A stretch of DNA of 64,000 bases, taken from contig JANYIL010000258.1 of assembly GCA_025362075.1 (NCBI GenBank), forward strand, positions 547 to 64,546, read 5' to 3'. The stretch's first letter is position 1. Each line of letters begins with the position of its first letter. Under the pieces are notes generated by a model. It was not told the origin of the DNA, searched no databases, and saw only the letters and a list, made by a program, of their open reading frames with translations. The position numbers and the translations under genes were made by a program. Below, piece by piece: positions 14,891 through 43,094 of the stretch. Origin of the DNA: Chloracidobacterium sp. (lineage in GTDB: Bacteria; Acidobacteriota; Blastocatellia; Pyrinomonadales; Pyrinomonadaceae).

Positions 14891-15234
14891 TGCGGTTTTT
14901 GGTCGACGAGTGTGCCGGGCCTAAAGTGGCAAAGTGGCTTCTCGATGACGGCCATGCGGTCTTTTCTATCTTCGATAGCGCTCGGGGAACGTCTGACGAC
15001 GAGATTCTTAACAAAGCTTTCAACGAAAACTGGATTCTGATCACGACAGACAAGGATTTTGGCGAAATGGTCTTTCGGGAACGTCGGCAACATCGTGGGG
15101 TAGTTTTCTTACGTCTCGTAGACGAAAGGGCCGTCAACAAAATCGTTGTATTACAGGAACTTCTGAAAAATCATGCTGAACGTCTACCTGAGCGATTCGT
15201 GACCGTTACCGAATCTAGGGTGCGATTTACGTGA
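14890..15234 (+). CDS. DUF5615-family PIN-like putative toxin
   Basis: MRFLVDEC...DDEILNKAFNENWILITTDKDFGEM...HRGVVFLR is the usual partner of DUF433. Confidence 0.75.
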   Translation: MRFLVDECAGPKVAKWLLDDGHAVFSIFDSARGTSDDEILNKAFNENWILITTDKDFGEMVFRERRQHRGVVFLRLVDERAVNKIVVLQELLKNHAERLPERFVTVTESRVRFT

Positions 15235-15243
15235 GGCAACCGT

Positions 15244-16704: not shown

Positions 16705-16741
16705 CGCCGGTCTCCTTTGGGGTCGTGGACTATTAGGAGGT

Positions 16742-23600: not shown

Positions 23601-24778
23601 TTAACGGAAATGGCAAGATAGACCGGCAGCGGCTGGCCTCTCAGGTGATCGTATCGCAGCCTGTTCACGACCAGACGGAGAAGCCAAAGAATGAACTTCA
23701 GATAAAACTGACATGGATATGGCAAAAAGTACTTGGCTTGTCGTCCATCGGCATACAGGACAATTTCTTTGATCTCGGCGGCCACTCGCTTGCGGCTGTA
23801 CGCGTATTTTCAGAGATCGAGAGTGCTCTCGGCTGTCGGCTGCCGTTGGCCACTCTTTTTAAAGCACCGACGATCGAACAACTTTCAGAGTTGATCGAGG
23901 GCAGTGATTGGCGGTCAAGCTGGGCGTCAATCGTCCCGATGCGCACCGGTGGCAGCAAGCCGCCTTTCTTCTGCATCCATGCCGTCGGTGGAAACATTCT
24001 CGAGTATAACGATCTGGCAAGAAATTTAGGTCCGGACCAGCCATTTTACGGGCTACAGTCGATCGGGCTCGATGGCCGCTCGGCGCCACTTACAGATTTA
24101 GGTGCAATGGCTGATGCCTACGTCAAAGAAATTCGCAAGATTCAGCCCGTAGGCCCCTACTATCTGGGAGGCCGCTCCTTCGGTGGAACGGTTGCGTATG
24201 AAATGGCGCGACGTCTCTACGCGGAAGGTCAGGAGGTTGCGCTGCTCGCGATTTTCGACAGCTATCCCAAAGGGTGGCTCAAGCGCTTTAGCCAGGATGA
24301 GGCCCACGCGTACAGGCGTCAGTTTTTGAAGATGCGGGCGCAGCGGCATTTACAGCTTTGGATTGGTTTGAGTCTGGCAGACAAGTTTCGTTACGGTTGG
24401 ACAAAATTGGGGTACAAGAGCCGTAAATTGCGAAACATCGTTTGGCAGGTATCGCATGCGATCCGCCCCGCCACGGAGTCCGTAAGCAGCACCGTCCGCA
24501 ACATCGAGGAGATCAACTATCTGGCGATCAAGAGCTATGTGCCTGAGATCTACGATGGAAAAGTCACGTTCTTTAGCGCAGGCGAGGAAGTTTGCCCGGA
24601 AGAAAATTTGACGGGCTGGCGTGTGCTCGCAACGGGCGGTGTAGATGTCGTGGGCGTACCCGGTGATCATCAGACCATGATCAAGGAGCCGCATGTTGGC
24701 GATCTTGCCCGACTTTTGGAAGACGCAATCGGCCGGACGAGCGGGATCAAATCGCCCGAGACGGGAGGCGAAAAATGA
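20612..24778 (+). CDS. NRPS termination module C-A-T-TE
   Basis: C3 motif HHILSDG (21158-21178). A3 motif ILYTSGSTGRPKGVM (22577-22621). A8 and A10 motifs RTGDLARY...KLRGFRIELGEIE and NGKIDR. Carrier motif FFDLGGHS (Ser codon 23786). Thioesterase GGRSFGG (Ser 24176) and GDHQTM. The start is uncertain (20504, 20561 or 20612). Confidence 0.9.
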   Translation: MRSQAISVTNSGTFTERLEVLSPVKRALLEKRLGRALPGGNPFQITRRAPGSTAPLSFSQEGLLFMEQLEPETSRYNVYEAIRLNGRLDRTILQQTLDDIVARHEALRTVFENAGDGWQQVIQPASAASVKHLDLRTSCEGVDAIDLLQKEADTPVDIYRGPIFSALLVTADDDESYLLIKMHHILSDGWSLGIYWKEFAEIYSARSQNRPAALGALPIQFGDYAAWSRQYLQREIDRQTEYWKKQIDGSPALLELPTDRPRPALQTAKGAQESVTFPRELLDRVNELCKREGCTLYMALLAGFDACLARYTDTEDLVVGTPIAGRSRTEIENLVGYFVNTLPLRTDMSGDPTFRDLLGRVRGAVLDAFSHQDVPFEHVVAAVKPERSLSYNPIYQVAFALQERRRSAVSLPGLDVTPVELQLSTSKFDLFLSAQEASDGLNITVEYSTDLFDRETIQRFIAHYQNLLASATNAPELRLSQMELLSQEERRQLLTEWNQTRTGYPKEAIHHIFAAQCEAYPVQIAVAASDEMWTYREMNEWSNRIANHLVNLGVGAGQRIGICMDRSPLMIAAILGVLKCGAAYVPMDTANPAFRLQQMVADAELTIILTCTEHIALVSQTPVTAIDVDAEKDAVDSCSSVFISKDRASDDDTACILYTSGSTGRPKGVMIPHRAISRLVRNTNYIEINRDDRFAHVANVAFDLAIFDIWGALLNGARTVIIPKDIVLLPERFSAEVKASGVTTICLATSLFHLIAREKPDAFSSVQTLIVAGEAFDPAAARQILASNPPQRLLNGYGPTESTTFATWKLIDEAAANEPSLSIGQPVSNTTIFILDDDLNLVPIGVAGEVFIGGDGLATGYLNRPELNEERFVSIPFQKFPDDAEAAESIRLYRTGDLARYRANGEIDYIGRKDNQVKLRGFRIELGEIEAIIEAHRGVAEAVVLAIKDSNDHRLAAYYVASSGAKISPDELRSYLRENLPHYMVPVSLNELAAMPLNGNGKIDRQRLASQVIVSQPVHDQTEKPKNELQIKLTWIWQKVLGLSSIGIQDNFFDLGGHSLAAVRVFSEIESALGCRLPLATLFKAPTIEQLSELIEGSDWRSSWASIVPMRTGGSKPPFFCIHAVGGNILEYNDLARNLGPDQPFYGLQSIGLDGRSAPLTDLGAMADAYVKEIRKIQPVGPYYLGGRSFGGTVAYEMARRLYAEGQEVALLAIFDSYPKGWLKRFSQDEAHAYRRQFLKMRAQRHLQLWIGLSLADKFRYGWTKLGYKSRKLRNIVWQVSHAIRPATESVSSTVRNIEEINYLAIKSYVPEIYDGKVTFFSAGEEVCPEENLTGWRVLATGGVDVVGVPGDHQTMIKEPHVGDLARLLEDAIGRTSGIKSPETGGEK

Positions 24779-25620
24779 TATTTCCCGGTCTGGCGGCGAT
24801 CCTGGCACAGAGTGACTGGATCCTGAATGCCAACAATTATCTCTATCACGCGCTCAACAATCTGGCGGGCCAGTCATTTGTGTTTGACCGGCTACTCGGC
24901 CTCGGCTTGAGCAGCAATCTTGTCAAAGCGGCAATCATCGGTGCGTGCTTCATGCTGGCATGGCTGTCCGGTGCCGACGAGTCAATTACAGCAGCACGGC
25001 GAAAGATACTGCTCATAACGCTTGTGTCGTCCGTATTGGTTCTGGCGGCGACGAAAACCGTTACAAAATACGTTTTTCTTCCACGGCCCTACGTTCTCTC
25101 TGAACGTAGCTTTCATCTTAATGACCGCCAGTTAGTCGAGACTCCGCAGGTGGACTTTCGGGTGCCTTTTGACGAGGAAACCGAAAAAAACTATCACGAG
25201 TTACAGCAGGGCGAGATCATATCCAACGATCTCACTTCGTTTCCGAGCGACCATGCGGGTTTCTTCGTCTGTATAGCTCTCGGCATTTTTCTGGCGTATC
25301 GAACCGTCGGAACCCTGGCGCTGCTATGGACTATTTTCGTACCCCTTGCAGCCAAGGTGATCCTTGGTCAGCATTCTCCTCTGGACATTGTCGTAGGAGC
25401 CGGAATTGGTGCCGTGATCCTGCTGTTGACGCAGTTAGTCGCAGGCCGCTGGGCCGGCCGCGTATTCGACCCGGCCGTCAAATGGACGATGAACAACTCT
25501 GCACTATCAGCGGCACTGTTATTCATCGTCCTGTTCGAGGTTACCAACACGCTTGATGACGTTCGTCAGGTCGGAAAAGTCGGAAAGGAACTTGCCAAAC
25601 ACATGTTGGGCAAGCAATAA
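24775..25620 (+). CDS. PAP2-family lipid phosphate phosphatase (membrane)
   Basis: The ATGA overlap with the NRPS stop indicates coupling. PAP2 motifs are LPRPY, FPSDHAG and GQHSPLDIVVG. Several TM helices are present. Confidence 0.75.
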   Translation: MIFPGLAAILAQSDWILNANNYLYHALNNLAGQSFVFDRLLGLGLSSNLVKAAIIGACFMLAWLSGADESITAARRKILLITLVSSVLVLAATKTVTKYVFLPRPYVLSERSFHLNDRQLVETPQVDFRVPFDEETEKNYHELQQGEIISNDLTSFPSDHAGFFVCIALGIFLAYRTVGTLALLWTIFVPLAAKVILGQHSPLDIVVGAGIGAVILLLTQLVAGRWAGRVFDPAVKWTMNNSALSAALLFIVLFEVTNTLDDVRQVGKVGKELAKHMLGKQ

Positions 25621-25626: not shown

Positions 25627-26532
25627 ATGCCAAGAAAGAACCTCAAGAGAATACTACTCGCGACGATTGTCCTGGCGGTGGGATTCGTCGGCGGTGGGTG
25701 CGGTCTTGATCAAAAGGGAATGGTACTTTTTACCGACCCATCGTACCGCGCCAGCGTCGTCGGTACGGATCGCGACGGTTTTACGGTGCCCGACGGTATT
25801 CTGTGGTACCAGGGCCGCTTTCTGATTGCGGACGAGGGTGGCTCTGCTTTCCGTATCTGGAGCGGGCCAGGTCATGTAGTGACGCTTTGCGACAGCAAGA
25901 TCGGTGTCATGTCGCCTGAGGATATGGCCATAGACCCCGTTGGGAACATCTATTTTACGGATGATGACGCGGGTGGCGTTTGGAAGATCAACAACTTCGG
26001 CGAAACGAAACAACTGGTCGGTAAGGATAAAGGCCTCATTTCAACAGAAGGTATCGTGCTGGCGCCAGACGGTAATCTGCTGGTTGGAGACGGCGAATCT
26101 CACAAGGTCTTTACCGTCACGCCCGATGGCGCCGTTTCGGAGTTTTTGGGTGCTGACTCTGGCATCAGCAAAGCAGAAAGCATGGCGTTCGACGAAAAGG
26201 GCGACCTTTTTATCGCCGACAATGAGGATAAAGTCCTATATCTGCTTACGCCCGACAAAAAGCTCCATCGCCTGATCGCGAATCGGGACGGATTTTCACC
26301 TGAGACGATCTGGTACTCAAAGGGTGTTCTCTACATCACGGACAGTCAGGACGGGAAACTCTTTAAGTACACTGCCGAGGATGGGCTGAACGTAATCGCG
26401 GTTTTTGGTGGCAAGCTCCACGCTGTGAACGGCGTCACGACCGACGATAACGGGGCGATTTACGTCTCAATACAGACCGATCTGGTAAAAAAGATCGGGT
26501 ACCTTATAAAGATCGAGCAGGACCGGCCTTAA
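25627..26532 (+). CDS. Six-bladed beta-propeller lipoprotein (NHL / SMP-30-like repeats)
   Basis: Signal peptide with a Cys (LAVGFVGGGC). Six repeats of the P(D/E)G(I/M)..D..G.(L/I)(Y/F)(I/V)(A/T)D type. Confidence 0.7.
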   Translation: MPRKNLKRILLATIVLAVGFVGGGCGLDQKGMVLFTDPSYRASVVGTDRDGFTVPDGILWYQGRFLIADEGGSAFRIWSGPGHVVTLCDSKIGVMSPEDMAIDPVGNIYFTDDDAGGVWKINNFGETKQLVGKDKGLISTEGIVLAPDGNLLVGDGESHKVFTVTPDGAVSEFLGADSGISKAESMAFDEKGDLFIADNEDKVLYLLTPDKKLHRLIANRDGFSPETIWYSKGVLYITDSQDGKLFKYTAEDGLNVIAVFGGKLHAVNGVTTDDNGAIYVSIQTDLVKKIGYLIKIEQDRP

Positions 26533-26684
26533 AGCATTCTCGCCATTAATCTTCCCCGCTTTACACGTATCCGCCGGACGCCGAGAAAATTCTTGAAACT
26601 CGGCGTTATTCGGCCTTTCTTTAAGTCTGGTTACACGTCTGTCTAATGGTCAGATGTTGCGCGCATTTTAAGATACGCCCTTTG

Positions 26685-29600
26685 ATGAAGAAAAACGTCG
26701 CCATCATTTTTCTGGCTAACGCCTTTACCCTGGTATCCGGTCTGGTCACGGGTCTTTTGACCGCATGGGCACTCGGACCCGAGGGACGAGGTGATCTGGC
26801 CGTGGTGGTCCTCTATCCAAACATCGTGGCTCTCGCAGCCGGGCTCGGAATGGCGCAGGCGACGCGGTATTTTGTTGCCAACCGGCCACGGCAGACGTCA
26901 ATGCTTTTTTCAAATGCCCTCTGTTTTGCGGGCATCGTGGGTTTTGCCGCATTTTTGATCGCCGAGTTGGTTATCCCCAACCTGATAGGCACGCGGAGCG
27001 AAGCAGTAATATGGCTGGTCAAGGCGTATCTCATCAACATTCCGTTCGCTCTGCTGTATGACGTGATGATTGCCACCCTGGAGGGCGCGCGTCGATTCAG
27101 ATGGGCCGCGGTTTCGAAAATACTCTTTTTCGGTATCCAATCCGGCGCTTATCTCGTCCTATGGTTCACGGGCCATCTGACCGTCTATAGTGCCGCAGCG
27201 ACGATGGTCGTTGCACAACTTGCAAACACAACGACCGCGCTTATATGCGTTTTACTGGCCCTAAGACCTCGCTGGAGGCCCAGTCCTCGGGTCTTTAAAA
27301 GGACGCTCCGTTTTGGTTTGAAGTATTACGTAGGTGTCGTCACCTCTTTCACAACCCTGCGATTGGACCAGATGATGCTCGCCGGCATGGCGACAAGCGT
27401 GGAGCTGGGGCTTTATGTAATTGCCGTCCGGTTGTCAGAAGTAATGACCCTGCTGGCATCTTCAGTGAGTGACGTGCTCATGCCGGAGGTTGCGTCATCG
27501 AGCGGTTCCGATCGCTCGCTCAAAATCCTGACGCGGAGTCTGCGACAGACGATGTATGTCTACTTGATCCTCCTGCTGCCGCTTGTCGCTGCATCGCCGC
27601 TAGTCCTGAGCTATGGGTTTGGAAGCGATTTTATCGCTGCCGCACCTGCATTGCGTATTTTGCTGGTCGGATCAATGGTCTGGAGCGCGGCGGCGATCAT
27701 CAATAGCGGGCTGAACGGACTTGGTTATGCGGGGCTGACCACGATTTCCCGATTGAGCTCCGCGGTTATTACAGTGCTGACGCTGCTCGTTTGGCTGCCG
27801 AAATACGGCATCGTCGGAGCTGCCCTATCGTCGCTTGCGGGCTACAGCGCAATGTTCGTATTTGCATTATTTTGGCTTATTCGGAAAGAGAAACTTCGGT
27901 TTTCCGACATTTTCCGCCCACATCACGAAGATTTTGCTATGAAAAAATTGGTCTCATTTTTACGTCCATCGACCGATGTTGAACCGTTGTTTGTCGAGCA
28001 GTTGTTCGAGAATCAGGCCGCCGAAAACCCGGATCACATTGCCGTCGTTTCAAAGACCGGCCAGATCACCTACGGCGAACTGAACCGCAAGGCCAACCAG
28101 CTAGCCTGGTTTCTAAAGTCGCGGGGCGCCGGACCGGAAACCCTGGTTCCGATCACTGTAGACCGCTCGGCCGACATGGCGATCGGGATTCTCGGCATTC
28201 TCAAATCGGGCGCCGCGTTTGTTCCGATCGATCCGGGGTACCCGCAGGAGCGGATCGACTTCATGCTCGCGGATACAGAAGCTCCATTGATTGTGACACA
28301 AAAAGATCTTCTCGCGTCGTGTAGGACAGAGAGGATTTGCCTGGATGAAGACTGGCCCCAGATTAGCGAATTTCCCGAAGAAAACCCGCCATTGTCGGGG
28401 TCGGCAGAAGATCTGGCGTACGTGATCTACACATCCGGTTCCACCGGTAAGCCGAAGGGCGTGATGCTCACGAGGGGGAACCTGCGACATTATGTCCACG
28501 CTCTGCAAAGCGAATTTCGGTTAACGCGAGACGATACGTATCTGCATCTGGCGTCGATCGGGTTTTCGTCATCGAGACGGCATCTGCTGCTGCCGCTCGC
28601 CTTTGGAGCCAGCGTTGTCATCGCCGACGAATACGAGCGGCTGGACCCGTTGCCTCTCTTTGAGCTGATAAAAGGGCGGCATGTCACTGTCTTTGACGCG
28701 GTTCCTTCTTTCCAGCGGCATTGTCTAAACGCACTGCTCGAACTTGATACGCCCGTGAGGGACGCTTTAATCGACAACCTCCTTCGCCTGATCGTTTCAG
28801 CGAGCGAGCCGCTGTACTCCGACATTCCCCGCGCGTGGATGATCGAATTCAGGCATCCCGCCGAGCACATTCACATGATCGGGCAAACAGAAACCAGCGG
28901 GATAGTTTCTCTTGGCCGCCTGACCGAAGCCGATGTCACCGGCGATGTGCGAACGGCCCCGGTGGGCCTGCCCATTGCTAATACCGACATCGTGCTACTG
29001 GGAGACGATTCTAAACCTGTCGCTGACGGGGAACGCGGAGAAATCTACGTGAGCGGGGCCGGCGTCGGCCGTGGCTATCTCCGCCATCCGGAACTGACCG
29101 CCGAGAAATTCGTCGAACTTTCGATCGATGACGGACCCGTCGTCAGATATTGTAGAACCGGAGATCATGCCAAAAGGATGCCGGACGGCAGATTCGAGTG
29201 CCTCGGGCGCAGTGATTTTCAGATAAAGATCCGCGGGAACCGGGTCGAGCTAAGCGAGATCGAAGTTCTATTTCTCGGCCATCGTCAGGTACGTGAATGT
29301 GCTGTGATCGGTCGTAAAGATGAGCCGGGCGAGGTGCGGCTGGTCGCATACGTCGTTCCCGTGGGGAATGAAACGCTTCTCCCGGATGACCTGCGCGGTC
29401 TCGCGGAAACTTCACTACCCGATTACATGCAGCCTGCGGTCTTCGTTTTATTGGACAAGATGCCGCTCACGCCAAACGGTAAAGTAGATCGAAAGGCACT
29501 CCCGGCTCCGGATCAAGCCGTGCGGACGACCCCATTGGCCAGCCATGAGGCCGGGACGCCGCTGCCAGCAGCTATCGAGGCGATCTGGTGCGAGATACTC

Positions 29601-32600
29601 GGCGTTTCCGAGGTCCGCGCCGGAGACAGCTTCTTCGCTTTGGGCGGTCACTCGCTGATGGCTGCCCGCATGATTGCCCGGGTCAGGGCTTTTTCTGGCG
29701 GTCAACTTCCGATCCGGGCGATCTTCGATATGCCAACCTTCGAGAGTTTTTGTCGCGTCGTGGAGCAAACGGCGGTTTCGGGCGTTGCGGAACCACGACG
29801 CGTTTTCCCCGAGCGTCCCTCGCGAATTCCTCTTTCATTCGCCCAGCAGCGGGTGTGGTTTCTCGGTGAACTTGACCTCGGCTTAACGGCCTACAACGAG
29901 TGCGAGATACTAAAACTCAACGGTGAACTCGATCCCAACGCACTCCAGACGGCGTTAAGTCAGATGGTAAGCCGTCACGAGATGCTTCGAACATGTTTTC
30001 GGACTGAGAACGGCGAACCGTATCAAGTGGTTATTGAAGACACGAATGTCGTTCTCGAAAGAGTCGATCTAACCGACCGTACCAAAGGACAAGATGCGGC
30101 CCTGCAGATCGCTCGCGAGCGGGCAGAAAAACCTTTTGATCTGACTCAATGCCCGTTGTTCCGGGCCACGCTCGCAAAAACGGCCGAGTACGAACATTTC
30201 CTCATTCTGGTCCTTCATCACACTGTAAGCGACCAGTGGACAGTCGGTGTATTGCTCAAAGAGCTCAACGCCTTTTACTCCGCCGAGGTCACTAGAAAAC
30301 CCGCTGCATTGCCGCCGCTGCCTATTCAATACGCGGACTATGCAGCCTGGCAGCAAAACTGGCTTTCAACGGATGACTATCAAGAGCAGTTAAGCTATTG
30401 GCAGGAAGAGTTAGACGGAGCTCCAAGTCTTCTCGAACTCACGGACAAGCCGAGACCGCCGGTCCAGAGATATGAAGGGTCTCAGGCAACAACATTTCTG
30501 AACGGCGATTCTCGTGACCAGATACGCATCTTTTGTGAGCGTGAAGGCGTTACCGTTTTCATGCTTTTGCTCGCTACGTGGGAACTCCTGCTGTACCGTT
30601 ACAGTGGCCAGGACCAGATCGTCGTCGGCACGCCAATCGCGGGTCGAACATGTCCGGAGACTGAGGATCTGATCGGGTTTTTTGTGAATACGCTCGCGAT
30701 GAGGGGCGATCTGTCGGGTAACCCGACCTTTCGTGAGCTGTTACACCGCACGAGGGAGCGGGCTTTGGGCGCATATGCAAATCAGGATCTGCCGCTCGAA
30801 AAGCTTGTCGAGGAAGTCAACCCGGAACGGAATCTGAGCTACACGCCTCTGTTCCAGGTTATGTTCACGCTCCAAAATACCCCGGGTTTCTCGGATACGA
30901 TAGGTAACCTCGCCGTCGAACGCATACGGCTAAAGAAAGAATCGGCAAAGTTCGACCTAAGCCTCGACGCCTTCGAATGCCCTAACGGCTTCGATCTCCA
31001 GCTTGAGTTCAACACCGACCTGTTTTCGCAGGAAACTGCCGACAGAATGCTGTTGCATCTAAAAACTCTGATCCGGTCGGTGCTCGCAGACCCGTCGCAG
31101 CAAATCAGCGAAGCCAAATTGCTTTCCGATGGCGAACTGACGCAGATCCTTGAGGATTGGAATTCCGCGACTTTGGATGTACCGGCTGTCTGTGTTCACG
31201 AGCTAATTGAGGCTCAGGCGGCTCAGTGGCCGCAGTCAACCGCTGTCGTCTGGAACGATCAGTGCATCACATACGGCGAGCTTGACCGGAGAGCCAATCA
31301 ACTAGCCCGCTATCTCCTAAAACAAGGAGTTGCGCCCGATCAGATCGTCGGCGTACACCTCCATAAGTCGATCGAGATGATCGTCGCGGTGCTCGCGGTC
31401 ATGAAGGCCGGTGGAGCCTACCTGCCCATGGACCTAAATTATCCGGCTGAGCGATTGCAGTACATGGTCTCAGAGGCCGGCGTGAAAGTGCTGGTAACGC
31501 AAGAGGCCCTCGGCGCGTCTGCCGCAGAACTGGATTGCAAAACCGTCGTCTTCGTCGACAGCGATGAGCAAGAGATCGGAGCCGAAAGTGTAGACAGGCC
31601 ACACTCGGATGTTACGCCGCAAAACCTGATCTATGTCACCTTCACGTCAGGTTCCACCGGCCGGGCAAAAGGAGTGATGATCGAACATCGGATGGTCGTC
31701 AATGCCGTCGCCGCGTGGGAAAAGGAATATGATCTGCCATCGCTCGCGAGCCATCTGCAAATGGCGAGCTTCTCATTTGATGTCTTCACCGGCGACCTGA
31801 CGCGGGCACTGTGCAGCGGCGCGAAACTCGTGTTATGCCCCGCAGAATCCCTGCTTGAACCGTCGCACCTCGAATCGCTGATCCGTGAACACAAGATCGA
31901 ATATGCCGAGTTCGTCCCCGCGGTTGTCCGGCCCCTCATAGAACATCTCGAAGGAACGGGCCGAACCCTCGACGATCTCAAGCTCGTCGTCGTCGGCTCG
32001 GATACGTGGCAGTCGGACGAATACCGGCGGCTGCAACGCATTTGCGGCGTGGATACGAGGGTCGTCAATTCGTACGGCATCACCGAGGCCACAATCGACA
32101 GTACGTTCTATGACATGCCGGAGACGGAACAGGCGGGTGCCGAGATCGTGCCTATCGGGCGCCCGTTCCCTAACACTCAGCTATACCTTCTGGATGCCTT
32201 CGGAAACCCGGTCCCCGTCGGCATGCCGGGAGAGTTATACCAGGGCGGGAATGCTTTGGCACGCGGCTACCTGAATCGGCCCGATTTGACGGCGGAAAAA
32301 TTTGTCGAGATCGAGCTACCGTTTCCCGGCGGCGCTTCCACGCGGAGGCTCTATCGTTCCGGCGACCTCGCCCGCTTTCGGAGCGACGGGACGATCGCGA
32401 TCATCGGACGGGCCGACAATCAAATAAAACTACGCGGATACAGGATCGAGTTAGGCGAGATCGAGTCTGCCCTGTCCAGGCACGCGGATGTGAATGAATG
32501 TGTTGTAACGCTCCGGGAGGACGTGCCGGGCGACAAGCGACTGGTCGCTTATCTCACAAGTCGGTCGGGTGAGCTTAAGACCGCCGAGTTGCGGGCATTC

Positions 32601-33134
32601 CTTAAAGCAGCCCTGCCGGAATACATGGTCCCGGCCGCTTACGTCCTGATGAGCGAATGGAAACTGACTCCAAACGGAAAGATCGACCGCAAACAGCTTC
32701 CCCAACCCGAGGTCACGGCGACCTCACCCGATTCTGCATATACGGCACCTCGCAACGAAGTAGAGGCGATGCTTGCGGACATTTGGGGTCAGCTTTTGCG
32801 GGTCGAACGTGTCGGTATCGACGACAACTTCTTTGAGCTTGGCGGCCATTCTTTGCTCGCTACTCAGGCGGTATCGCGAACCCGTGATGCAGTCGGCTAC
32901 GATCTTCCCTTACGGGCTATGTTCGAGACACCGACAATCGCCGAGATAGCTGATCGGCTGGGGAGCGAATTGGCCGAGTCGAATCGTGCGAAAGAATTCC
33001 CGTCGATCACCGAAGACCAGGACGAGATCGAACGTCTCTTAGCCGAATTGGAGGGCGTTACCGACGAGGAAGCCAACCGGCTTTTGATGGATCATGACGA
33101 TCAATACTCGTCCGCCGGTATCGGCAGCAAATGA
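26685..33134 (+). CDS. Fusion: Wzx-type (MOP superfamily) flippase domain + NRPS modules A-T-C-A-T
   Basis: A single open frame. Residues ~1-430 are a polytopic flippase-like domain. A1 is VIYTSGSTGKPKGVM (28422-28466), T1 is FFALGGHS (Ser 29652), C is HHTVSDQ (30216-30236), A2 is LIYVTFTSGSTGRAKGVM (~31629-31679) and T2 is FFELGGHS (Ser 32850). The acidic C-terminal tail is probably a docking region. Confidence 0.85.
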   Translation: MKKNVAIIFLANAFTLVSGLVTGLLTAWALGPEGRGDLAVVVLYPNIVALAAGLGMAQATRYFVANRPRQTSMLFSNALCFAGIVGFAAFLIAELVIPNLIGTRSEAVIWLVKAYLINIPFALLYDVMIATLEGARRFRWAAVSKILFFGIQSGAYLVLWFTGHLTVYSAAATMVVAQLANTTTALICVLLALRPRWRPSPRVFKRTLRFGLKYYVGVVTSFTTLRLDQMMLAGMATSVELGLYVIAVRLSEVMTLLASSVSDVLMPEVASSSGSDRSLKILTRSLRQTMYVYLILLLPLVAASPLVLSYGFGSDFIAAAPALRILLVGSMVWSAAAIINSGLNGLGYAGLTTISRLSSAVITVLTLLVWLPKYGIVGAALSSLAGYSAMFVFALFWLIRKEKLRFSDIFRPHHEDFAMKKLVSFLRPSTDVEPLFVEQLFENQAAENPDHIAVVSKTGQITYGELNRKANQLAWFLKSRGAGPETLVPITVDRSADMAIGILGILKSGAAFVPIDPGYPQERIDFMLADTEAPLIVTQKDLLASCRTERICLDEDWPQISEFPEENPPLSGSAEDLAYVIYTSGSTGKPKGVMLTRGNLRHYVHALQSEFRLTRDDTYLHLASIGFSSSRRHLLLPLAFGASVVIADEYERLDPLPLFELIKGRHVTVFDAVPSFQRHCLNALLELDTPVRDALIDNLLRLIVSASEPLYSDIPRAWMIEFRHPAEHIHMIGQTETSGIVSLGRLTEADVTGDVRTAPVGLPIANTDIVLLGDDSKPVADGERGEIYVSGAGVGRGYLRHPELTAEKFVELSIDDGPVVRYCRTGDHAKRMPDGRFECLGRSDFQIKIRGNRVELSEIEVLFLGHRQVRECAVIGRKDEPGEVRLVAYVVPVGNETLLPDDLRGLAETSLPDYMQPAVFVLLDKMPLTPNGKVDRKALPAPDQAVRTTPLASHEAGTPLPAAIEAIWCEILGVSEVRAGDSFFALGGHSLMAARMIARVRAFSGGQLPIRAIFDMPTFESFCRVVEQTAVSGVAEPRRVFPERPSRIPLSFAQQRVWFLGELDLGLTAYNECEILKLNGELDPNALQTALSQMVSRHEMLRTCFRTENGEPYQVVIEDTNVVLERVDLTDRTKGQDAALQIARERAEKPFDLTQCPLFRATLAKTAEYEHFLILVLHHTVSDQWTVGVLLKELNAFYSAEVTRKPAALPPLPIQYADYAAWQQNWLSTDDYQEQLSYWQEELDGAPSLLELTDKPRPPVQRYEGSQATTFLNGDSRDQIRIFCEREGVTVFMLLLATWELLLYRYSGQDQIVVGTPIAGRTCPETEDLIGFFVNTLAMRGDLSGNPTFRELLHRTRERALGAYANQDLPLEKLVEEVNPERNLSYTPLFQVMFTLQNTPGFSDTIGNLAVERIRLKKESAKFDLSLDAFECPNGFDLQLEFNTDLFSQETADRMLLHLKTLIRSVLADPSQQISEAKLLSDGELTQILEDWNSATLDVPAVCVHELIEAQAAQWPQSTAVVWNDQCITYGELDRRANQLARYLLKQGVAPDQIVGVHLHKSIEMIVAVLAVMKAGGAYLPMDLNYPAERLQYMVSEAGVKVLVTQEALGASAAELDCKTVVFVDSDEQEIGAESVDRPHSDVTPQNLIYVTFTSGSTGRAKGVMIEHRMVVNAVAAWEKEYDLPSLASHLQMASFSFDVFTGDLTRALCSGAKLVLCPAESLLEPSHLESLIREHKIEYAEFVPAVVRPLIEHLEGTGRTLDDLKLVVVGSDTWQSDEYRRLQRICGVDTRVVNSYGITEATIDSTFYDMPETEQAGAEIVPIGRPFPNTQLYLLDAFGNPVPVGMPGELYQGGNALARGYLNRPDLTAEKFVEIELPFPGGASTRRLYRSGDLARFRSDGTIAIIGRADNQIKLRGYRIELGEIESALSRHADVNECVVTLREDVPGDKRLVAYLTSRSGELKTAELRAFLKAALPEYMVPAAYVLMSEWKLTPNGKIDRKQLPQPEVTATSPDSAYTAPRNEVEAMLADIWGQLLRVERVGIDDNFFELGGHSLLATQAVSRTRDAVGYDLPLRAMFETPTIAEIADRLGSELAESNRAKEFPSITEDQDEIERLLAELEGVTDEEANRLLMDHDDQYSSAGIGSK

Positions 33135-33889
33135 TGGTGGCATCAGCTTTTAGAGATTCAGTCACCGAACTCCGTCCACAAGAGTGGCGGACCGCCGACC
33201 GATTCCCTGCCCTGCCGTCAGGAGAACTGCACGTCTGGTTGATGCATATCGACCGGTCACGGGAGCATCTGCTCGGATCCACCCTGTCGCCTGACGAGCT
33301 TGCGCGGGCCGCGCAATTCAGGTATCCGGAACATCGTGCGGAATTCGTCGTCTGTCGGGGGGCACTCCGGAGCCTTCTCGGTCATTATGTTGGCCTCGAT
33401 CCGGCTCGGGTGCAGATCTTCTACACTGACGATGGGAAGCCATTCCTCTGTCATCGCTCATCCAGTGTTAAATTCAACGTTTCCCATGCCGGGGAGTACG
33501 CTCTTTTCGCTTTCAGCCTCGGCCTGGACGTGGGCGTGGATATCGAACGGAGAGAGGCAGGAGGGATCGACGCTGGATTGCTTAGGCACTGCCTCCACGA
33601 CAACGAGCTGGAGACATACCATGCCCTTGCCGCGGATGAACAAGGCCCTTTCTTTTTCAAATGCTGGACCCGAAAAGAAGCGTACCTAAAGTTTCGCGGC
33701 GACGGTTTCGCGGTATCTCCGACGGCGATAGATCTGCAATCGATTCGGGGAAATGAATTGGGTCCGGGAGAAAGCCGGGCGTGGTTTAGTGATCTGCCAG
33801 AAATCGACGCCTACTCTGCAGTTATTGCGACTAAGGACCAACCCGAAAGCATCGCCTGTTACAAACTTGGCTCGAGCCCTTTTAAGTAA
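33131..33889 (+). CDS. Sfp-type 4'-phosphopantetheinyl transferase
   Basis: ATGA overlap with the NRPS stop. Motifs FNVSHAGEYALFAF, GVDIE and WTRKEAYLKFRG. Confidence 0.85.
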   Translation: MMVASAFRDSVTELRPQEWRTADRFPALPSGELHVWLMHIDRSREHLLGSTLSPDELARAAQFRYPEHRAEFVVCRGALRSLLGHYVGLDPARVQIFYTDDGKPFLCHRSSSVKFNVSHAGEYALFAFSLGLDVGVDIERREAGGIDAGLLRHCLHDNELETYHALAADEQGPFFFKCWTRKEAYLKFRGDGFAVSPTAIDLQSIRGNELGPGESRAWFSDLPEIDAYSAVIATKDQPESIACYKLGSSPFK

Positions 33890-35424
33890 GGCTTATGGCT
33901 TACGGTATTTTTTGCCGTGACAGGTAGTTCCAGGCTCCTCGCGCTGACCCAGCCGAGAAGGAGCCATCCGATAGGAGCTATCGAATATATCATGAACGAC
34001 GTGCCGAAAAAGTTGTTCAGGATCAGCGTCGCCACTAATGTCATCGCGATCCTTGAGTTGGTAAACTCTCTTGAGCCACGTTCAGCCTCTCGGCAGATTC
34101 GCATGCTGCTGCGCAAGGATCTCCAAAATATCCAGATAAACAATAGCGCGGCGGGAACCCCGGCTGAGGTAGCAAGCGTGAAAAAATGATTGTCTATCGG
34201 CCGCCGGTCATTCTCATCGCTGCGGGTGCCGGCAAGAGTGCTGTCACCCAGACCGGAGCCTAGCGGATTAGATGGGATAGTCTCTAACAGGACCTGGGAC
34301 CACGTCTCAAGCCTGACCCCGAGACTGGTTTCGTTTGCCGGGTCAAGTGTTCCTTTCGTCGTATGCGATAAAAGCGTGCTTACGCTTTCGCCGCTCTTGA
34401 GATCACTCTCATCGGGAGCAAATTGTGAGGAGGCGAACAGAAAAAACCCGCATGCAACTGCAAGAGCGGCCGTCCGGGCCATGGCGCTGCCCCATGACCG
34501 GGCACCGGCCATGAAAAATACGGTGAGCCCCAGAAACAGACCGAATATTGAAGTGCGTTGACCCGTAAGAGCTATCATTACCGCCAAAACGGTCGCACAT
34601 ACGCCCCAGACCGGGCGAAACTTACCCTCCGACCGCGAAACCGCAAGTCCCACGGCGATCAGGCAGCCAAGCTCGACATAGCGGCCCCATTCCTCGGCAT
34701 TGCTGAAAGTGGCGATGGCCCGCGTGACCTTGTACACGGCGATCGATTGATAGTGGTCGGTGTTGTCGATCCAATACTGTTCAAATGCCGGATATCCGGC
34801 GACCATCTGGTAAACGCCGTAGGCTGACGCGATAATACCGAGCACGACCACCGCTCTTAAAACGCGCGGAAAAAGATCACGCGAGGCATGCTGGCCAAAG
34901 TAGAACCACGCCATCGGCACAAGAATGAACAGTGCTCCACTGAGGCCGACAAAAAGGCCGCCTTGCAGCGGATTGAATACCTGAATTAAGCAGATCAGGG
35001 CGAGCAGTGACGTGGCTTTCGCCACGGGCGTAGCTACAAACATAGCTAACTTGTGCCTGTACAGGACGATCAGAAAAGCAAACAGGGCCGCCACCGGCGT
35101 TAGGAGGTGTATCGGTTCATTGCTGCTGTACGGTACGACGAGGTACTGCATTCGCCGCACGAGGCCGCGGAATGGCTCAAAGATGACCATTGCGAGCAAC
35201 CCGGCCTCGAGCGATGCTAGGAGCGGCATCAGGATCGCTAATAGAATTGACGTCAATCCGAACGCACGAAGGATTTGTCCACCCGACGACGCAGCCCATG
35301 CGGCTCCCGCGGCCATTACCTGCAGCAGAGCGACAAAAAGGTAAGACACCTTTAACCGTGGCAATCGTTTTGTAAGCGTTCTGTTGTGCAATTGATTGTT
35401 CAAGGCCTTTCGAAGATCGGTCAA
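33859..35424 (-). CDS. O-antigen ligase/polymerase (Wzy-like) family membrane protein
   Basis: About 11-12 TM helices. The central loop region ...ALTGQRTSIFGL... is typical of the Wzy_C family. The TTG start overlaps the upstream stop. The 3' end overlaps the convergent PPTase gene by 31 nt. Confidence 0.7.
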   Translation of the reverse strand: MTDLRKALNNQLHNRTLTKRLPRLKVSYLFVALLQVMAAGAAWAASSGGQILRAFGLTSILLAILMPLLASLEAGLLAMVIFEPFRGLVRRMQYLVVPYSSNEPIHLLTPVAALFAFLIVLYRHKLAMFVATPVAKATSLLALICLIQVFNPLQGGLFVGLSGALFILVPMAWFYFGQHASRDLFPRVLRAVVVLGIIASAYGVYQMVAGYPAFEQYWIDNTDHYQSIAVYKVTRAIATFSNAEEWGRYVELGCLIAVGLAVSRSEGKFRPVWGVCATVLAVMIALTGQRTSIFGLFLGLTVFFMAGARSWGSAMARTAALAVACGFFLFASSQFAPDESDLKSGESVSTLLSHTTKGTLDPANETSLGVRLETWSQVLLETIPSNPLGSGLGDSTLAGTRSDENDRRPIDNHFFTLATSAGVPAALLFIWIFWRSLRSSMRICREAERGSREFTNSRIAMTLVATLILNNFFGTSFMIYSIAPIGWLLLGWVSARSLELPVTAKNTVSHKPYLKGLEPSL

Positions 35425-36866
35425 ACGGCGCCGCGTGCGGCTATGACAGCCGGAAGGGTCTTCAACAGAATCAACCAGTCAAGCTGCAGCGACCAGGTAT
35501 CGATGTATTCCAAATCGAGTGCGACCCATTGCTCAAAGGAAAGATTGCTTCGGCCCGATATCTGCCAAAGGCACGTTAGACCCGGTTTTACGCTGAATCT
35601 GCGTTTTTGCCAACATTCCTCGAGTCTTACCGCGTCGCGTATGGACAAGGGCCGGGGACCGACGAGGCTCATGTCGCCGAGCAGTACATTGAGGAGCTGC
35701 GGTAGCTCGTCGATGCTGAATTTTCTGAGTATTCTGCCAACCCGCGTCACCCTGGGGTCGTCCTTGATCTTAAAGATGGGCCCCTCTTTTTCGTTCAAAT
35801 GCTCCATCTCCTCCATCCGGGCTTCGGCGTCGGTGGTCATTGTCCGGAACTTGATCATCTGGAAGCGACGCTTGTTATATCCCATGCGCTCCTGAACGAA
35901 GAAAACAGGCCCTATCGAGTCAAGCTTTATCAAAACGGCGATGATCGCGAACAGCGGAGTTCCCAGCCCGGTCAGAACCGCTGAGCCGACAAAGTCGATG
36001 ATCCTTTTTACCTCGGTTCGCCAGCAGAAAGGTGGTGTGCTCGTCAGCGACAACAGCGGCATGCCGTGAAAATCGTTTGTGCGTGTTTTGGCAAGATTCC
36101 GCGGGAAAAAATCCGAAAGGAGGTGAATCGCTATCCCCTGCTCCTCAAGCCGGTCGATGGCGACTTTTATCTGGTCGTATTGCGATTTAATGGGAAGGGC
36201 AATGGCAACATCGTCAATCACACGGTCATTGAGGATTGTCGTCAGCGCGTCAAAGCCTCCAAGCCACGGATAGCCCTCGATATCACGCCGAAAATTAGTA
36301 CCGCTATCAATAAAACCGATGATCTTGTACCCAAGCTCAGGCATCCCGCCAAACACCTCGATCAGATGTTCCGCACGCATGCCGCCGCCAATGACGAGCA
36401 TGGTCTTTGTGTTCATGCCGCGCCGACGCAGCAGGTGCGAAGTACGGTAAACGATTATCCTGAGACCACTAACAAAAGCGAGGCCGACGATGAAAAAAAG
36501 AACGACCGTGAAAAGGGTGATGGTCAGCCAGCCCCCGAGCTGGGCGGCGACCAGCAACGTCAGAGAGCATAGGCCAACGCCTTTGACCGCGGCTCCAATA
36601 ACGTCTTCGATCTTCCTCAAACGATATGAGTGATAGAGGCCGTACGCCTTGAAGCAGAAATGCCACGTGATAGCCAGCACTCCGCAGAGTATCGCGTTCG
36701 ACAATTTGACCCGCGTGACCATGAAATCGGTGGTGTAATCGGTCACGCTCGACTGGTCCCCGGGCGCATAGATTATTACGATCGCCGTCGCCAATGCCAG
36801 CAGCATCAGGACGAGATCCACGCAATTAAGAAATAGGAGTGACAATTGTCCCTGCCGAAAGTTCAT
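35421..36866 (-). CDS. Polyprenyl-phosphate glycosyl-phosphotransferase (EPS priming sugar transferase, WbaP/EpsB-like)
   Basis: N-terminal TM helices plus the C-terminal bacterial sugar-transferase domain GPVFFVQERMGYNKRRFQMIKFRTM...KDDPRVTRVGRILRKFSIDELPQLLNVLLGDMSLVGPRP. Confidence 0.9.
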   Translation of the reverse strand: MNFRQGQLSLLFLNCVDLVLMLLALATAIVIIYAPGDQSSVTDYTTDFMVTRVKLSNAILCGVLAITWHFCFKAYGLYHSYRLRKIEDVIGAAVKGVGLCSLTLLVAAQLGGWLTITLFTVVLFFIVGLAFVSGLRIIVYRTSHLLRRRGMNTKTMLVIGGGMRAEHLIEVFGGMPELGYKIIGFIDSGTNFRRDIEGYPWLGGFDALTTILNDRVIDDVAIALPIKSQYDQIKVAIDRLEEQGIAIHLLSDFFPRNLAKTRTNDFHGMPLLSLTSTPPFCWRTEVKRIIDFVGSAVLTGLGTPLFAIIAVLIKLDSIGPVFFVQERMGYNKRRFQMIKFRTMTTDAEARMEEMEHLNEKEGPIFKIKDDPRVTRVGRILRKFSIDELPQLLNVLLGDMSLVGPRPLSIRDAVRLEECWQKRRFSVKPGLTCLWQISGRSNLSFEQWVALDLEYIDTWSLQLDWLILLKTLPAVIAARGAV

Positions 36867-36918: not shown

Positions 36919-37617
36919 TCACCTGATAAGACTGCCGACCGGACCTATCAGCGGCACCAGAGCAGCAATCCGCACGAACCTCTCAATTTTGCTGAGCGTG
37001 TTTCTCGGAACGAAAACTATGTCACCGGAGCGAAGCGTCATGTCATTTTCCAGATCGGTCGTTTTCTTTATGCTTTTAAGGTTTAAGGTCCGAACCTCTG
37101 CGAATTCGTCGTTCAGCCGGCGAAAAATGACGATCTGATTACTTTTTGCCGTCTCCTTAAATCCGCCGGATATCATGATGGCCTGTAGGGCGGTGACATT
37201 CTCACGCAACTCGAACCGGCCTGCGTTTGCCACCTCGCCGGAAACAACGATGTATGGTTTTTGGAATTCGCGAAGAAAAAGGTTTACCTCGGGCTCTTTC
37301 AGGCGTACGCTCGCCTTTTCTACGATCTTCCGCAGCGCATCCTGTAGCGTTAGTCCACCCAGCTTTAAGTCCCCGACGATCTGAAGTCCGACGTATCCAT
37401 CGGGCTGTATCGTCACGGTCTGGTTAAATTCGGGCGTGTATCTGTATATAACTTCGACAACGTCACCCGGAACCAGCCGATAGCGATCCTCGGTATGCGG
37501 CTTGAGAACAGGCTTGTCCTCCGTGGGCCGCATTACGCGGGTAGTGTCCTGCGCCGAAGCCGCGCAGACGATAATCAGAAATACGACGATCGCAGTAATA
37601 AATCGCATGTTTTTCAC
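36919..37617 (-). CDS. Polysaccharide export protein (Wza/Poly_export + SLBB)
   Basis: Signal peptide. YRLVPGDVVEVIY...IQPDGYVGLQIVGDLKLGGLTLQD and a second SLBB-like block. Confidence 0.85.
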   Translation of the reverse strand: MKNMRFITAIVVFLIIVCAASAQDTTRVMRPTEDKPVLKPHTEDRYRLVPGDVVEVIYRYTPEFNQTVTIQPDGYVGLQIVGDLKLGGLTLQDALRKIVEKASVRLKEPEVNLFLREFQKPYIVVSGEVANAGRFELRENVTALQAIMISGGFKETAKSNQIVIFRRLNDEFAEVRTLNLKSIKKTTDLENDMTLRSGDIVFVPRNTLSKIERFVRIAALVPLIGPVGSLIR

Positions 37618-38226
37618 CTATATTCGTCGGTATATCCAATTCGGTATTGGATAGCGGCGCTTATTGAGCACGCAGCCGAGGACGTTCGCATCGGTCATTT
37701 CAATCGTGTTCAACGCATTGCGAACCTGCTCCTTCCTAGTATTTTCCGCCGAAACGACGAGCACTACTCCGTCGACGGCCGACGCAAAGTAGACCGCATC
37801 GCCCGATTCTTTTATCGAGGGGCAGTCCACGAGAATGTAGTCGTACATGAACCTTAGTGTTTGGAGATTGCTGATGCCCTGGTCCAACTCGCTGCCCGCC
37901 GTGACCCGAGCAAGGGTCTGGCTCTCTGACGCCTCGTCTATCAACTCATCAGCGTCTCGCCTCAGAACATGGAGGTTCGGAATGTCTGTTTTGCAGCAAA
38001 AGCGCGGCAGATCCTGATAGTTAAAGATGTCGATCTTTTGCAGCGTATCAACATCGGTAATGATCGTCCTCTTTTTTGTCCGGCCGGCAAGCTCGGTGGC
38101 AAAGGACTCAGTGACGTAACTCACACCTTCGCCCGGAACCGCCGATGTAAAAGCGATCACCTGAGAATCGACCGTTTTATGACCCGGTTTTATACTGCGT
38201 AAAAATAACTGAATGTAAGAGTTCAT
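37618..38226 (-). CDS. BY-kinase/CpsD-like P-loop protein with degenerate Walker A
   Basis: IAFTSAVPGEGVSYV occupies the position of ..GEGK(S/T).. (Val codon 38122-38124). The Walker A'-like motif is TIITDVD and the Walker B-like motif is YILVDCPS. The C-terminal tail has two Tyr residues. Confidence 0.65.
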   Translation of the reverse strand: MNSYIQLFLRSIKPGHKTVDSQVIAFTSAVPGEGVSYVTESFATELAGRTKKRTIITDVDTLQKIDIFNYQDLPRFCCKTDIPNLHVLRRDADELIDEASESQTLARVTAGSELDQGISNLQTLRFMYDYILVDCPSIKESGDAVYFASAVDGVVLVVSAENTRKEQVRNALNTIEMTDANVLGCVLNKRRYPIPNWIYRRI

Positions 38227-43080: not shown

Positions 43081-43094
43081 TGCGTTTCTTCCCG

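Follow-up and report, generated by a model that had tools for sequence, protein, structure and literature searches.

A flippase domain and two peptide synthetase modules in one reading frame

We analyzed a 64,000-nucleotide stretch of DNA (hereafter the window) from Chloracidobacterium sp. (Acidobacteriota; Blastocatellia; Pyrinomonadales; Pyrinomonadaceae), which covers positions 547-64,546 on the forward strand of contig JANYIL010000258.1 in the metagenome-assembled genome (MAG) GCA_025362075.1. On its + strand, positions 26685-33134 encode a protein of 2149 amino acids in which a Wzx-type flippase of the multidrug/oligosaccharidyl-lipid/polysaccharide (MOP) superfamily is joined by a linker to nonribosomal peptide synthetase (NRPS) domains in the order A1-T1-C2-A2-T2 (A, adenylation; T, carrier; C, condensation). 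The open frame runs from 26646 to 33134 and contains no internal stops; it yields 2162 residues from the first ATG and 2149 from the ATG at 26685, the latter being the start that is conserved in relatives (MKKN...) and used by an identical protein in the databases (P0121). Domains were called with Pfam and, for the fusion protein and its neighbors, also with NCBIfam models. Pfam reads the whole protein as MOP-A-T-C-A-T, with Polysacc_synt_3 (PF13440) at residues 30-319 (46.9 bits against a cut-off of 23), two AMP-binding stretches, two AMP-binding_C and two PP-binding matches, and a single Condensation match at residues 1048-1488. The original prediction of one uninterrupted frame of 2149 codons with an A-T-C-A-T order is borne out by the translation and by these domains, as are the adenylation and condensation motifs it had quoted, VIYTSGSTGKPKGVM beginning at 28422 and HHTVSDQ at 30216.

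The flippase domain occupies 26685-27899 and has about 12 transmembrane (TM) segments, with both termini predicted to lie in the cytoplasm. It is followed by a cytoplasmic linker of about 35 residues (27900-28004), which appears to be the former C-terminal tail of the flippase, as judged from junction peptides, model confidence and linker lengths in relatives. The linker is predicted to be disordered in an AlphaFold2 model, is poorly conserved across fused orthologs and contains an in-frame ATG at 27939; from the translation, one tryptic peptide predicted to span the fusion junction is LVSFLRPSTDVEPLFVEQLFENQAAENPDHIAVVSK. A1, a non-canonical starter adenylation domain with the A4 motif FSSS, covers 28005-29483 (AMP-binding, residues 441-799; AMP-binding_C, residues 858-933). 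The remaining domains are the carrier T1 (29562-29774, approximate coordinates, with the Ser in GGHS at residues 987-990), C2 with its HHTVSDQ motif (29826-31148), A2, located by signature alignment (31206-32699, again approximate), and T2 (32772-32960; PP-binding, residues 2030-2092). The protein ends in an acidic tail after T2, which may act as a docking region.

The same fusion in independently assembled relatives

Homologs were collected by an exhaustive HMMER search over 1.84 billion representative proteins, by a survey in which the flippase was aligned to the GTDB species-representative genomes and frames were then extended by script, and by a metagenome scan with an alignment spanning the junction. 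The same in-frame fusion is found in at least seven other independently assembled contigs from uncultured Pyrinomonadales/Pyrinomonadaceae, with 59-82% identity over the junction segment. The HMMER search returned two fused entries, the window protein itself and P0122 (65% identical). P0122 is MBA2736797.1, an 'amino acid adenylation domain-containing protein' from a Pyrinomonadaceae MAG, and its cluster mate from another sample is a full-length protein of 2175 residues. Single-ORF fusions were recovered from the GTDB genomes in L006 (2155 residues; at 80% identity the closest relative), L009 (2163 residues, 67% identity), L007 (2710 residues) and L011 (2186 residues). Fused orthologs are also present in L004 (2175 residues) and L005, and the metagenome scan adds L084, whose frame is open for 2206 codons, and L085, whose frame is open to the contig end. 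That the fusion might be unique to the window had been suggested by the free-standing homologs of a word-indexed protein search, and is ruled out by the HMMER search and the genome survey; the matches listed by the word-indexed search were all about 510 residues or fewer, did not include the homologs of 1514, 2149 and 2175 residues recovered by HMMER, and carry no weight on the fused architecture.

We considered whether a missed base or a chimeric join could have merged two genes during sequencing or assembly. The window is a metagenome-assembled contig, its exact protein is on record from one contig only, and no independent assembly of the same strain was found by exact protein or contig look-up or by an exact 36-nucleotide junction search in metagenomes. 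However, the in-frame fusion recurs in L006, the closest relative, and in six more lineages that come from other samples, and the linkers of fused orthologs differ in length only by whole codons. Compared with the split relatives described below, the window junction moreover shows a deletion of about 26 nucleotides rather than a single-base difference, with protein homology continuing in one frame on both sides. Several diverged fused lineages and whole-codon linker differences make an assembly error in the window very unlikely, and we give an artifact next to no chance. Together, the comparisons show what we predict to be a real single polypeptide, maintained in evolution, in which Wzx is joined at its cytoplasmic C terminus to NRPS modules 1 and 2.

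Variations on this architecture were seen in individual relatives. In L005 (GCA_013698085.1, JACCVO010000439.1, 4733-4758), the fused ORF ends after C2 at 1514 residues and the second A domain reopens 25 nucleotides on. The near-identical ENA contig L004 encodes an uninterrupted 2175-residue protein, and the gene in L005 has either been misassembled at this point or been disrupted recently. An extra C-T didomain is present in some relatives, namely at L007:2979-11111 (MOP-A-T-C-A-T-C-T, 2710 residues) and in a split version of 2276 residues at L015:9306-16136. L015 also has a Laminin_G_3 plus metallophosphoesterase gene between its NHL-repeat gene (see below) and the flippase gene.

The membrane domain is a Wzx-type flippase

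A hydropathy scan places about 12 TM segments within residues 7-399. The N terminus and alternate (even-numbered) loops are rich in Lys and Arg, with nine such residues in loop 194-229, and these features indicate a predicted N-in/C-in topology, which would place the NRPS part in the cytoplasm. An AlphaFold2 model of the flippase domain, calculated from 28 sequences, is confident over the TM core and has a per-residue confidence score (pLDDT) of 85.4 and a predicted template modeling score of 0.82, with pLDDT falling below 50 at residues 425-445 in the linker. Foldseek matched this model to MurJ (6nc9, E value 5e-11) and to the Escherichia coli lipid III flippase WzxE (9g95/9g9o), with TM-scores of 0.72-0.79, TMt values of 0.76-0.79 and root mean square deviations of 4.2-4.6 Å. 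MATE transporters, ClbM among them, were matched as well (E values for MurJ and MATE entries, 1e-9 to 5e-11), and a PDB sequence search with the membrane domain alone gave no match. All 62 alignment columns that are invariant across 27 free-standing relatives are kept in the fused flippase, and PF01943 is also matched by the fused ortholog in L007 and by free-standing relatives.

Two other identities were examined and rejected. The NCBIfam MurJ model scores 31.7 bits against a cut-off of 235.55. For a ClbM-like MATE exporter, TIGR00797 scores 22.7 bits against a cut-off of 147.4 and there is no Pfam MatE match, such that the likeness lies at the level of the superfamily fold only. An unrelated transporter family at the N terminus, which the original prediction had named as a way in which it could fail, is thus not what we find: PF13440 scores above its cut-off and the MurJ and MatE models far below theirs. 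The domain combines a Wzx/PST-family profile match above threshold with a 12-TM MOP fold and with exopolysaccharide (EPS) partner genes alongside. On the basis of Pfam, the model matching WzxE and MurJ, orthology and synteny, the N-terminal domain is a Wzx-type MOP flippase, as had been proposed, with predicted flipping activity.

A three-module assembly line and its predicted substrates

The fusion provides modules 1 and 2 of a line of three. Module 3 is a C-A-T-TE protein (TE, thioesterase) encoded upstream at 20612-24778 (+), with Pfam Condensation, AMP-binding, PP-binding and Thioesterase matches and the motifs HHILSDG, GGHS and GRSFG. Its frame opens at TTG 20504 and the likely start is ATG 20612; the versions found in relatives have 1374-1382 residues. 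The line thus reads A1-T1-C2-A2-T2 in the fusion and C3-A3-T3-TE in the upstream gene, and Pfam detects neither a starter C domain nor an epimerization (E) domain in either NRPS protein. It has the collinear A, T and C domains, the releasing TE and the 4'-phosphopantetheinyl transferase (PPTase) of a modular NRPS, and its core motifs are intact: TSGSTGKPKG and TSGSTGRAKG for adenylation motif A3, PLTPNGKVDR for motif A10 (A1), two GGHS carrier motifs, HHTVSDQ in the condensation domain (with Gln in place of Gly) and GRSFG in the partner TE. Domain content and operon structure show a predicted line that is completed in trans by the C-A-T-TE protein at the operon head and primed by the co-encoded PPTase.

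In amino acid-activating A domains, Asp235 binds the α-amino group of the substrate. In our HMMER alignment to LgrA, A1 contains FSSS instead of FDxS, with Asp235 replaced by Ser. Asp235 is present in A2 and A3 but not in A1, and its absence is conserved in all orthologs examined. As A1 lacks Asp235 while its other core motifs are intact, it is probably active on a substrate without an α-amino group, and it would then probably load a non-α-amino acid starter. The 10-residue signatures, obtained by alignment to a GrsA reference segment, which returned DAWTIAAICK in a self-check, are SSRDISMGIK for A1, DVGEVVSIDK for A2 and DLFCIAGTFK for A3. The A1 signature is identical in L006, L009, L004, L011 and L001, and FSSS also heads the NRPS in L024, L028, L029 and L052. 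The A3 signature resembles what we take to be the valine signature. The A2 signature is identical in 8 of 10 positions to the ornithine signature DVGEIGSIDK (PMC3992020). From these signatures, we infer a putative three-unit chain composed of a non-α-amino acid starter, an ornithine-like basic residue and a Val-like hydrophobic residue.

The NRPS cassette and the convergent EPS operon

The + strand genes follow the order C-A-T-TE, PAP2, NHL, fusion and PPTase, with several 4-nucleotide overlaps. A PAP2-family membrane phosphatase (24775-25620; Pfam PAP2, 48.7 bits; about six TM segments) overlaps the C-A-T-TE gene by 4 nucleotides. It has weak NCBIfam matches to PgpB and to undecaprenyl-diphosphate phosphatase, and its gene is syntenic in all cassette-bearing relatives. 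Next is an NHL-repeat β-propeller (25627-26532) with weak Pfam NHL, SGL and Vgb_lyase matches and a weak ScyD/ScyE family match. Since its N terminus, MPRKNLKRILLATIVLAVGFVGGGCG, is a signal or lipoprotein-like peptide, the protein is predicted to be extracytoplasmic; its gene is syntenic in relatives. The cassette is completed by an Sfp/HetI-type PPTase (33131-33889; Pfam ACPS and AASDHPPT_N; NCBIfam HetI-like, 135 bits), whose gene overlaps the stop codon of the fusion by 4 nucleotides. By synteny, PAP2, the putative NHL lipoprotein and the PPTase are conserved members of the NRPS cassette. An Rfam scan of the cluster returned no RNA element, and promoter and terminator scans upstream of the NRPS operon were at chance level.

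The convergent EPS operon lies on the - strand. It encodes a Wzy-type polymerase (33859-35424; Pfam Wzy_C; 93% identical to its ortholog in L006), a priming polyprenyl glycosylphosphotransferase (PGT; 35421-36866; Pfam Bac_transf; TIGR03025, 397.8 bits against a cut-off of 295.55), a Wza/OPX-type polysaccharide export protein (36919-37617; Pfam Poly_export and SLBB, and NCBIfam), a P-loop protein resembling bacterial tyrosine (BY) kinases (37618-38226; TIGR01007, 64.8 bits, below the cut-off), a Wzz/PCP chain-length determinant (38242-40032; Pfam Wzz and GNVR; TIGR03007, 159 bits) and two family 4 (GT4) glycosyltransferases called by Pfam (40099-41238 and 41235-42440). Two secreted proteins of 218 and 724 residues stand at the head of the operon (42442-45269); they have signal peptide-like N termini and no significant family match in Pfam or NCBIfam. 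A sugar-1-phosphate nucleotidyltransferase (45461-46495, +; Pfam NTP_transferase and hexapeptide repeats) is syntenic in L001. Pfam and NCBIfam thus recover the gene content that had been described for this operon (Wzy, PGT, Wza, Wzz, kinase-like protein and GT4 enzymes). They also agree with the claim that it has no separate Wzx: no second member of the MOP family turned up when the large ORFs of the 64-kb window were scanned with Pfam. The PGT and Wzy genes overlap by 4 nucleotides in the window and abut directly in L001 too, leaving the canonical Wzx slot between them empty in both.

The fused domain as the displaced Wzx of the EPS pathway

We compared gene orders by tblastn across the loci of relatives. 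Where family flippases at 40-52% identity have no adjacent NRPS, the order is Wzz, kinase, Wza, PGT, flippase, Wzy, GT4 and GT4 (L025, L050, L053, L057, L058, L060, L065 and L070). L028 and L029 keep the same canonical order and have PAP2, NHL and NRPS genes immediately downstream of the EPS genes. In the window, the flippase is now found between NHL and NRPS. Because its orthologs occupy the slot between PGT and Wzy, which is empty in the window, the fused domain is, as judged from gene order, the displaced ortholog of the Wzx of this EPS pathway. Wherever the surroundings of the NRPS cassette can be seen, EPS genes lie next to it (L001, L004, L006, L009, L011, L043, L084 and L086). Cassettes with an FSSS starter are joined to this EPS cluster type in several gene orders, and L024 and L052 show only an FSSS-headed NRPS beside the flippase. 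Across these loci, the predicted NRPS cassette recurs as a part of EPS clusters of this type in Blastocatellia. Among other long MOP proteins in public data are Wzx-Wzy (P0180, P0189 and P0242) and Wzx-GT4 (P0251) proteins of 800-980 residues and about 30% identity to this flippase, which argues for a tendency of Wzx to become fused to proteins with which it shares a pathway.

Carrier protein genes were also seen in another arrangement. In several Pyrinomonadaceae (L035, L036, L039-L041, L045 and L061), GT4 genes surround a flippase of the family, and about 7 kb upstream the opposite strand carries a gene for a stand-alone A-T didomain. A PPTase is found about 3-4.5 kb downstream in L035, L036, L039, L041 and L061. 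It seems from these A-T didomain and PPTase genes that carrier protein chemistry is a common accessory of such EPS clusters.

A flippase might instead have been recruited as exporter or membrane anchor for a free, non-glycan NRPS peptide, comparable to the MATE protein ClbM and precolibactin, with the NHL or PAP2 protein processing the peptide later in the periplasm and the EPS operon using another flippase encoded elsewhere in the genome. This would fit a MOP fold that is common to MATE drug exporters (ClbM being among the structural matches), a flippase gene that has left its canonical EPS slot for the NRPS operon, the two extracytoplasmic proteins conserved in the cassette, and the presence of a second family flippase (L054) in one related MAG. 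However, the domain is orthologous to the canonical EPS Wzx, with every family-invariant residue in place, and the EPS operon retains Wzy, PGT, Wzz and Wza, yet has no Wzx of its own in the window. In L028 and L029, the NRPS cassette is present with the flippase still between PGT and Wzy, and the NRPS thus needs no adjacent exporter; EPS genes flank the cassette in every visible context. We consider recruitment as exporter or anchor unlikely. As the flippase is a displaced canonical Wzx ortholog and the same cassette occurs on the EPS cluster in several orders, the comparative evidence favors a predicted coupling to the flipping of a lipid-linked glycan over a pure anchor or exporter function.

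Origin and maintenance of the fusion

Phylogenetic trees were calculated by neighbor joining with 60 bootstrap replicates. NRPS-adjacent flippases form one group in the first tree with weak support (27/60), and the subclade holding every fused form is recovered in 60/60 replicates, as is the group of the window, L006 and L009. The fused L011 groups with the split L001 and L086 (60/60), which are nested beside it. In the sister group (L012-L020, L043 and L056), flippase and NRPS genes are separate and adjacent, and this adjacency is kept across the whole clade of about 25 loci. In L012, nothing more than one in-frame stop and two codons lies between the two genes (RFNL-stop-IAMSS). The flippase tail, which ends with IPLSKLLANFRLRFN before its stop codon, is homologous to the fused linker IPMKKFITVLSSRFNLE, the common pattern being IP(M/L)KK..RFN. 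L001, for which there are two assemblies (L001 and L002), is set apart from the fused forms by a 1-nucleotide indel in AAGAAAAG. As a result, the former tail is read as the N terminus of a separate NRPS, whose gene overlaps that of the flippase by 53 nucleotides; no canonical slippery site for programmed frameshifting is visible in L001. L003, which lies near L007, is frameshifted similarly.

The junction comparisons show that the fusion arose by loss of the stop codon between two genes that lie side by side in all related clusters. In the most parsimonious history, the stop was lost once, at the base of the subclade, and the genes were split again at least twice. Independent fusion events for the P0122-type and window proteins were considered and rejected: all fused forms and the sister clade have collinear flippase tails, and the split L001 and L003 derive from frameshifts. 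According to the original prediction, a stop or frameshift at the junction in close relatives would have meant two separate genes. It is absent from the closest relatives, L006 (80%) and L009 (67%), which are fused, and present in L001, L003, L086 and the whole sister clade. With the more distant relatives split and the closest ones fused, the window has a real fusion, and the pathway can evidently do without covalent linkage; we regard the fusion as favored rather than required.

The ease of this change bears on whether linkage matters at all. Within a single subclade, the two parts have switched between the fused and the split state (L001 and L086 beside the fused L011; L003 near L007), a single stop and two codons separate the genes in L012, and the linker is poorly conserved and predicted to be disordered. 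The fusion could on these grounds be selectively near-neutral, a side effect of having genes of one pathway, or merely of one operon, that abut or overlap and readily lose or regain a stop, with no channeling or coupling. On the other hand, it has been kept in at least eight contigs at 59-82% identity with linker indels that are always multiples of three, and gene adjacency has been kept across the clade of about 25 loci. We find near-neutrality doubtful; it disputes only the importance of tethering and does not contradict the pathway assignment.

A proposed mechanism

We see about an even chance that the lipid-linked EPS repeat unit is first decorated by the NRPS at the membrane and then flipped by the attached Wzx. 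In such a mechanism, the chain would be assembled on carrier domains that the Wzx domain holds at the inner face of the membrane. The partner TE would offload the three-unit chain onto the undecaprenyl diphosphate (Und-PP)-linked repeat unit made by the PGT and the two GT4 enzymes, the attached Wzx would flip the peptide-bearing repeat unit, and Wzy, Wzz and Wza would polymerize and export the peptide-bearing polymer. The PAP2 phosphatase and the NHL lipoprotein may work on the outer side, where they might, for instance, recycle Und-PP or trim the product. Tethering could raise the local concentration of the modified substrate at the flippase entrance, and would help without being necessary, given that relatives retain split versions.

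Several systems offer precedents. The MOP protein MurJ flips lipid II, an Und-PP-saccharide that bears a peptide, synthase and flippase are fused in MprF, and the Dlt system performs a carrier protein-dependent aminoacylation of a surface polymer. The TE of Pks13 releases its product onto trehalose before membrane translocation (PMC12933137), and carenaemin production in Collimonas requires both a PKS/NRPS (PKS, polyketide synthase) locus and a Wzx/Wzy-type locus (PMC8313283). It is possible, if tentative, that the system described here represents an NRPS counterpart of lipid II chemistry in a lineage of soil Acidobacteriota, in which a short peptide with a basic, ornithine-like residue is put onto the Und-PP-linked repeat unit by the membrane-tethered NRPS and flipped by the same polypeptide, leading to a cationic and possibly cross-linkable exopolymer.

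The acceptor might also be a membrane lipid. In an MprF-like scheme, the NRPS product would be joined to the lipid as an ornithine-containing lipopeptide or head-group modification, and the fused MOP protein would translocate the lipid to the outer leaflet. The ornithine-like A2 signature and the non-amino acid starter are in line with this, the PAP2-family protein of the cassette would act on lipid phosphates, and a synthase-flippase fusion is the very design of MprF. However, the operon has no starter C domain, acyl-ligase or lipid-synthesis gene, Pfam finds no MprF-type domains, and the flippase is orthologous to the EPS Wzx. We regard lipid modification as highly improbable.

Several points weigh against decoration of the EPS repeat unit. 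No acceptor-forming gene, for example of an amino-sugar pathway, is evident in the cluster, and no transferase other than the TE was identified there. The lack of another Wzx is a statement about 64 kb, and a second Wzx could lie elsewhere in the genome; one related MAG does contain a second flippase of the same family, L054. Covalent coupling is dispensable, as the split pairs in L001, L003, L086 and throughout the sister clade make plain, and the internal ATG at 27939 could also give a free NRPS isoform. The predicted substrates depend on signatures read from the alignment to the GrsA reference segment. Every organism that carries the fusion is an uncultured MAG, and the pathway is predicted from sequence.

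Wzx flippases and NRPSs have been well studied apart, the former in the context of cell-envelope glycans and the latter as soluble enzymes of secondary metabolism. Their conserved covalent fusion is Rosetta-stone evidence for Wzx and NRPS acting on one substrate stream, and the finding that it is kept in related uncultured species suggests a candidate peptide-bearing surface polymer that has not been described. If correct, decoration of the repeat unit would mean that Pyrinomonadaceae and other Blastocatellia, acidobacteria surveyed mainly via MAGs, make exopolysaccharides of a new, peptide-decorated class; it would also provide a natural example of assembly-line-to-transporter channeling and reveal a new offloading chemistry for TE domains. 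Should the lipid II-like version hold, this would be the first assembly line physically coupled to Wzx, with a new product class. The analysis also flags a conserved A-domain type without the α-amino-binding Asp. The public name of the fused homolog MBA2736797.1, the only source name on record, omits the flippase domain, and current annotation misses the fused architecture.

Other features of the window

Further genes surround the locus. The segment 46500-52200 has a low GC content (0.45-0.50 versus about 0.55), lies beside a tRNA gene (50546-50618, -) and encodes an AAA_25 protein (48326-49435), a CI-like repressor (50978-51544) and an M78/IrrE-type peptidase (51719-52192). These features suggest that a mobile element or prophage, of which a remnant may be left, has integrated immediately downstream of the EPS/NRPS locus. 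At 53589-57612 there are two large ORFs (639 and 628 residues) without a Pfam match, in a region with a strong AT skew of +0.17 to +0.20. At 12684-16923 (-), an archaeo-eukaryotic primase (AEP)-like protein, with a weak match to the AEP of TOTE conflict systems, adjoins an ATP-dependent DNA ligase; the pair could be a LigD-like repair pair or a defense-related module. A separate envelope-glycan cluster at 20-8230 comprises an ABC ATPase, an ABC-2 permease, a 795-residue double glycosyltransferase (MGDG_synth-like plus GT1), a polysaccharide deacetylase, a HAD hydrolase, a class III aminotransferase and a weak AMP-binding-like protein.

Comparison with known systems

We found no description in the literature of a Wzx-NRPS fusion, a membrane-anchored NRPS or an NRPS in a Wzx/Wzy EPS cluster of Acidobacteriota. 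The flippase half resembles Wzx proteins such as E. coli WzxE (9g95/9g9o) in its Polysacc_synt_3 profile, in its 12-TM MOP fold (TM-score 0.72-0.79) and in having Wzy, PGT, Wzz and Wza genes as neighbors. It differs in that the fusion has a cytoplasmic C-terminal NRPS extension of about 1700 residues, with the gene moved into the NRPS operon and with flipping predicted. The other half resembles modular type I NRPSs, LgrA being its best PDB sequence match, with canonical A, T, C and TE domains, a partner in trans and a dedicated PPTase. Unlike LgrA-type enzymes, however, the fusion is predicted to be anchored in the membrane by a polytopic transporter domain, A1 has Ser in place of Asp235, and the genes reside in a Wzx/Wzy cluster rather than in a typical secondary-metabolite cluster.

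MprF likewise combines in one polypeptide an N-terminal flippase and a cytoplasmic enzyme by which a membrane-bound substrate receives a basic amino acid, so that synthesis is coupled to translocation, but the domains are not homologous, and MprF uses aminoacyl-tRNA and a phospholipid substrate. Pfam finds no match on the fusion to the lysylphosphatidylglycerol (LPG) synthase (DUF2156) or flippase domains of MprF, and the likeness is one of analogy only. In the Dlt system, an adenylation domain and a carrier protein supply aminoacyl groups to a surface glycopolymer across the membrane. Dlt, however, adds a single D-Ala without C or TE domains, its membrane partner is the MBOAT protein DltB, and its proteins are separate. 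Neither an MBOAT nor a DltD match was found by Pfam among the large ORFs of the window, and the A domains of the fusion match DltA models only as generic adenylation domains.

For the mycobacterial transporter MmpL7, contact between synthase and transporter has been proposed. The Pks13/MmpL3 and PpsE/MmpL7 systems are similar to our proposal in that a megasynthase product is passed to a sugar acceptor by a TE and then translocated across the membrane (PMC12933137). There, the product is a polyketide or fatty acid, the transporter belongs to the RND family, and there is no covalent fusion. The Collimonas carenaemin loci make a three-residue PKS/NRPS product that depends on a separate Wzx/Wzy-type glycan locus (PMC8313283), but the two loci are unlinked and unfused, the product is a diffusible antifungal, and the host is a proteobacterium. 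In the Wzx-Wzy and Wzx-GT4 fusions, finally, Wzx is covalently joined to an enzyme of its own pathway, as we propose here, with a polymerase or glycosyltransferase rather than an NRPS as the partner.

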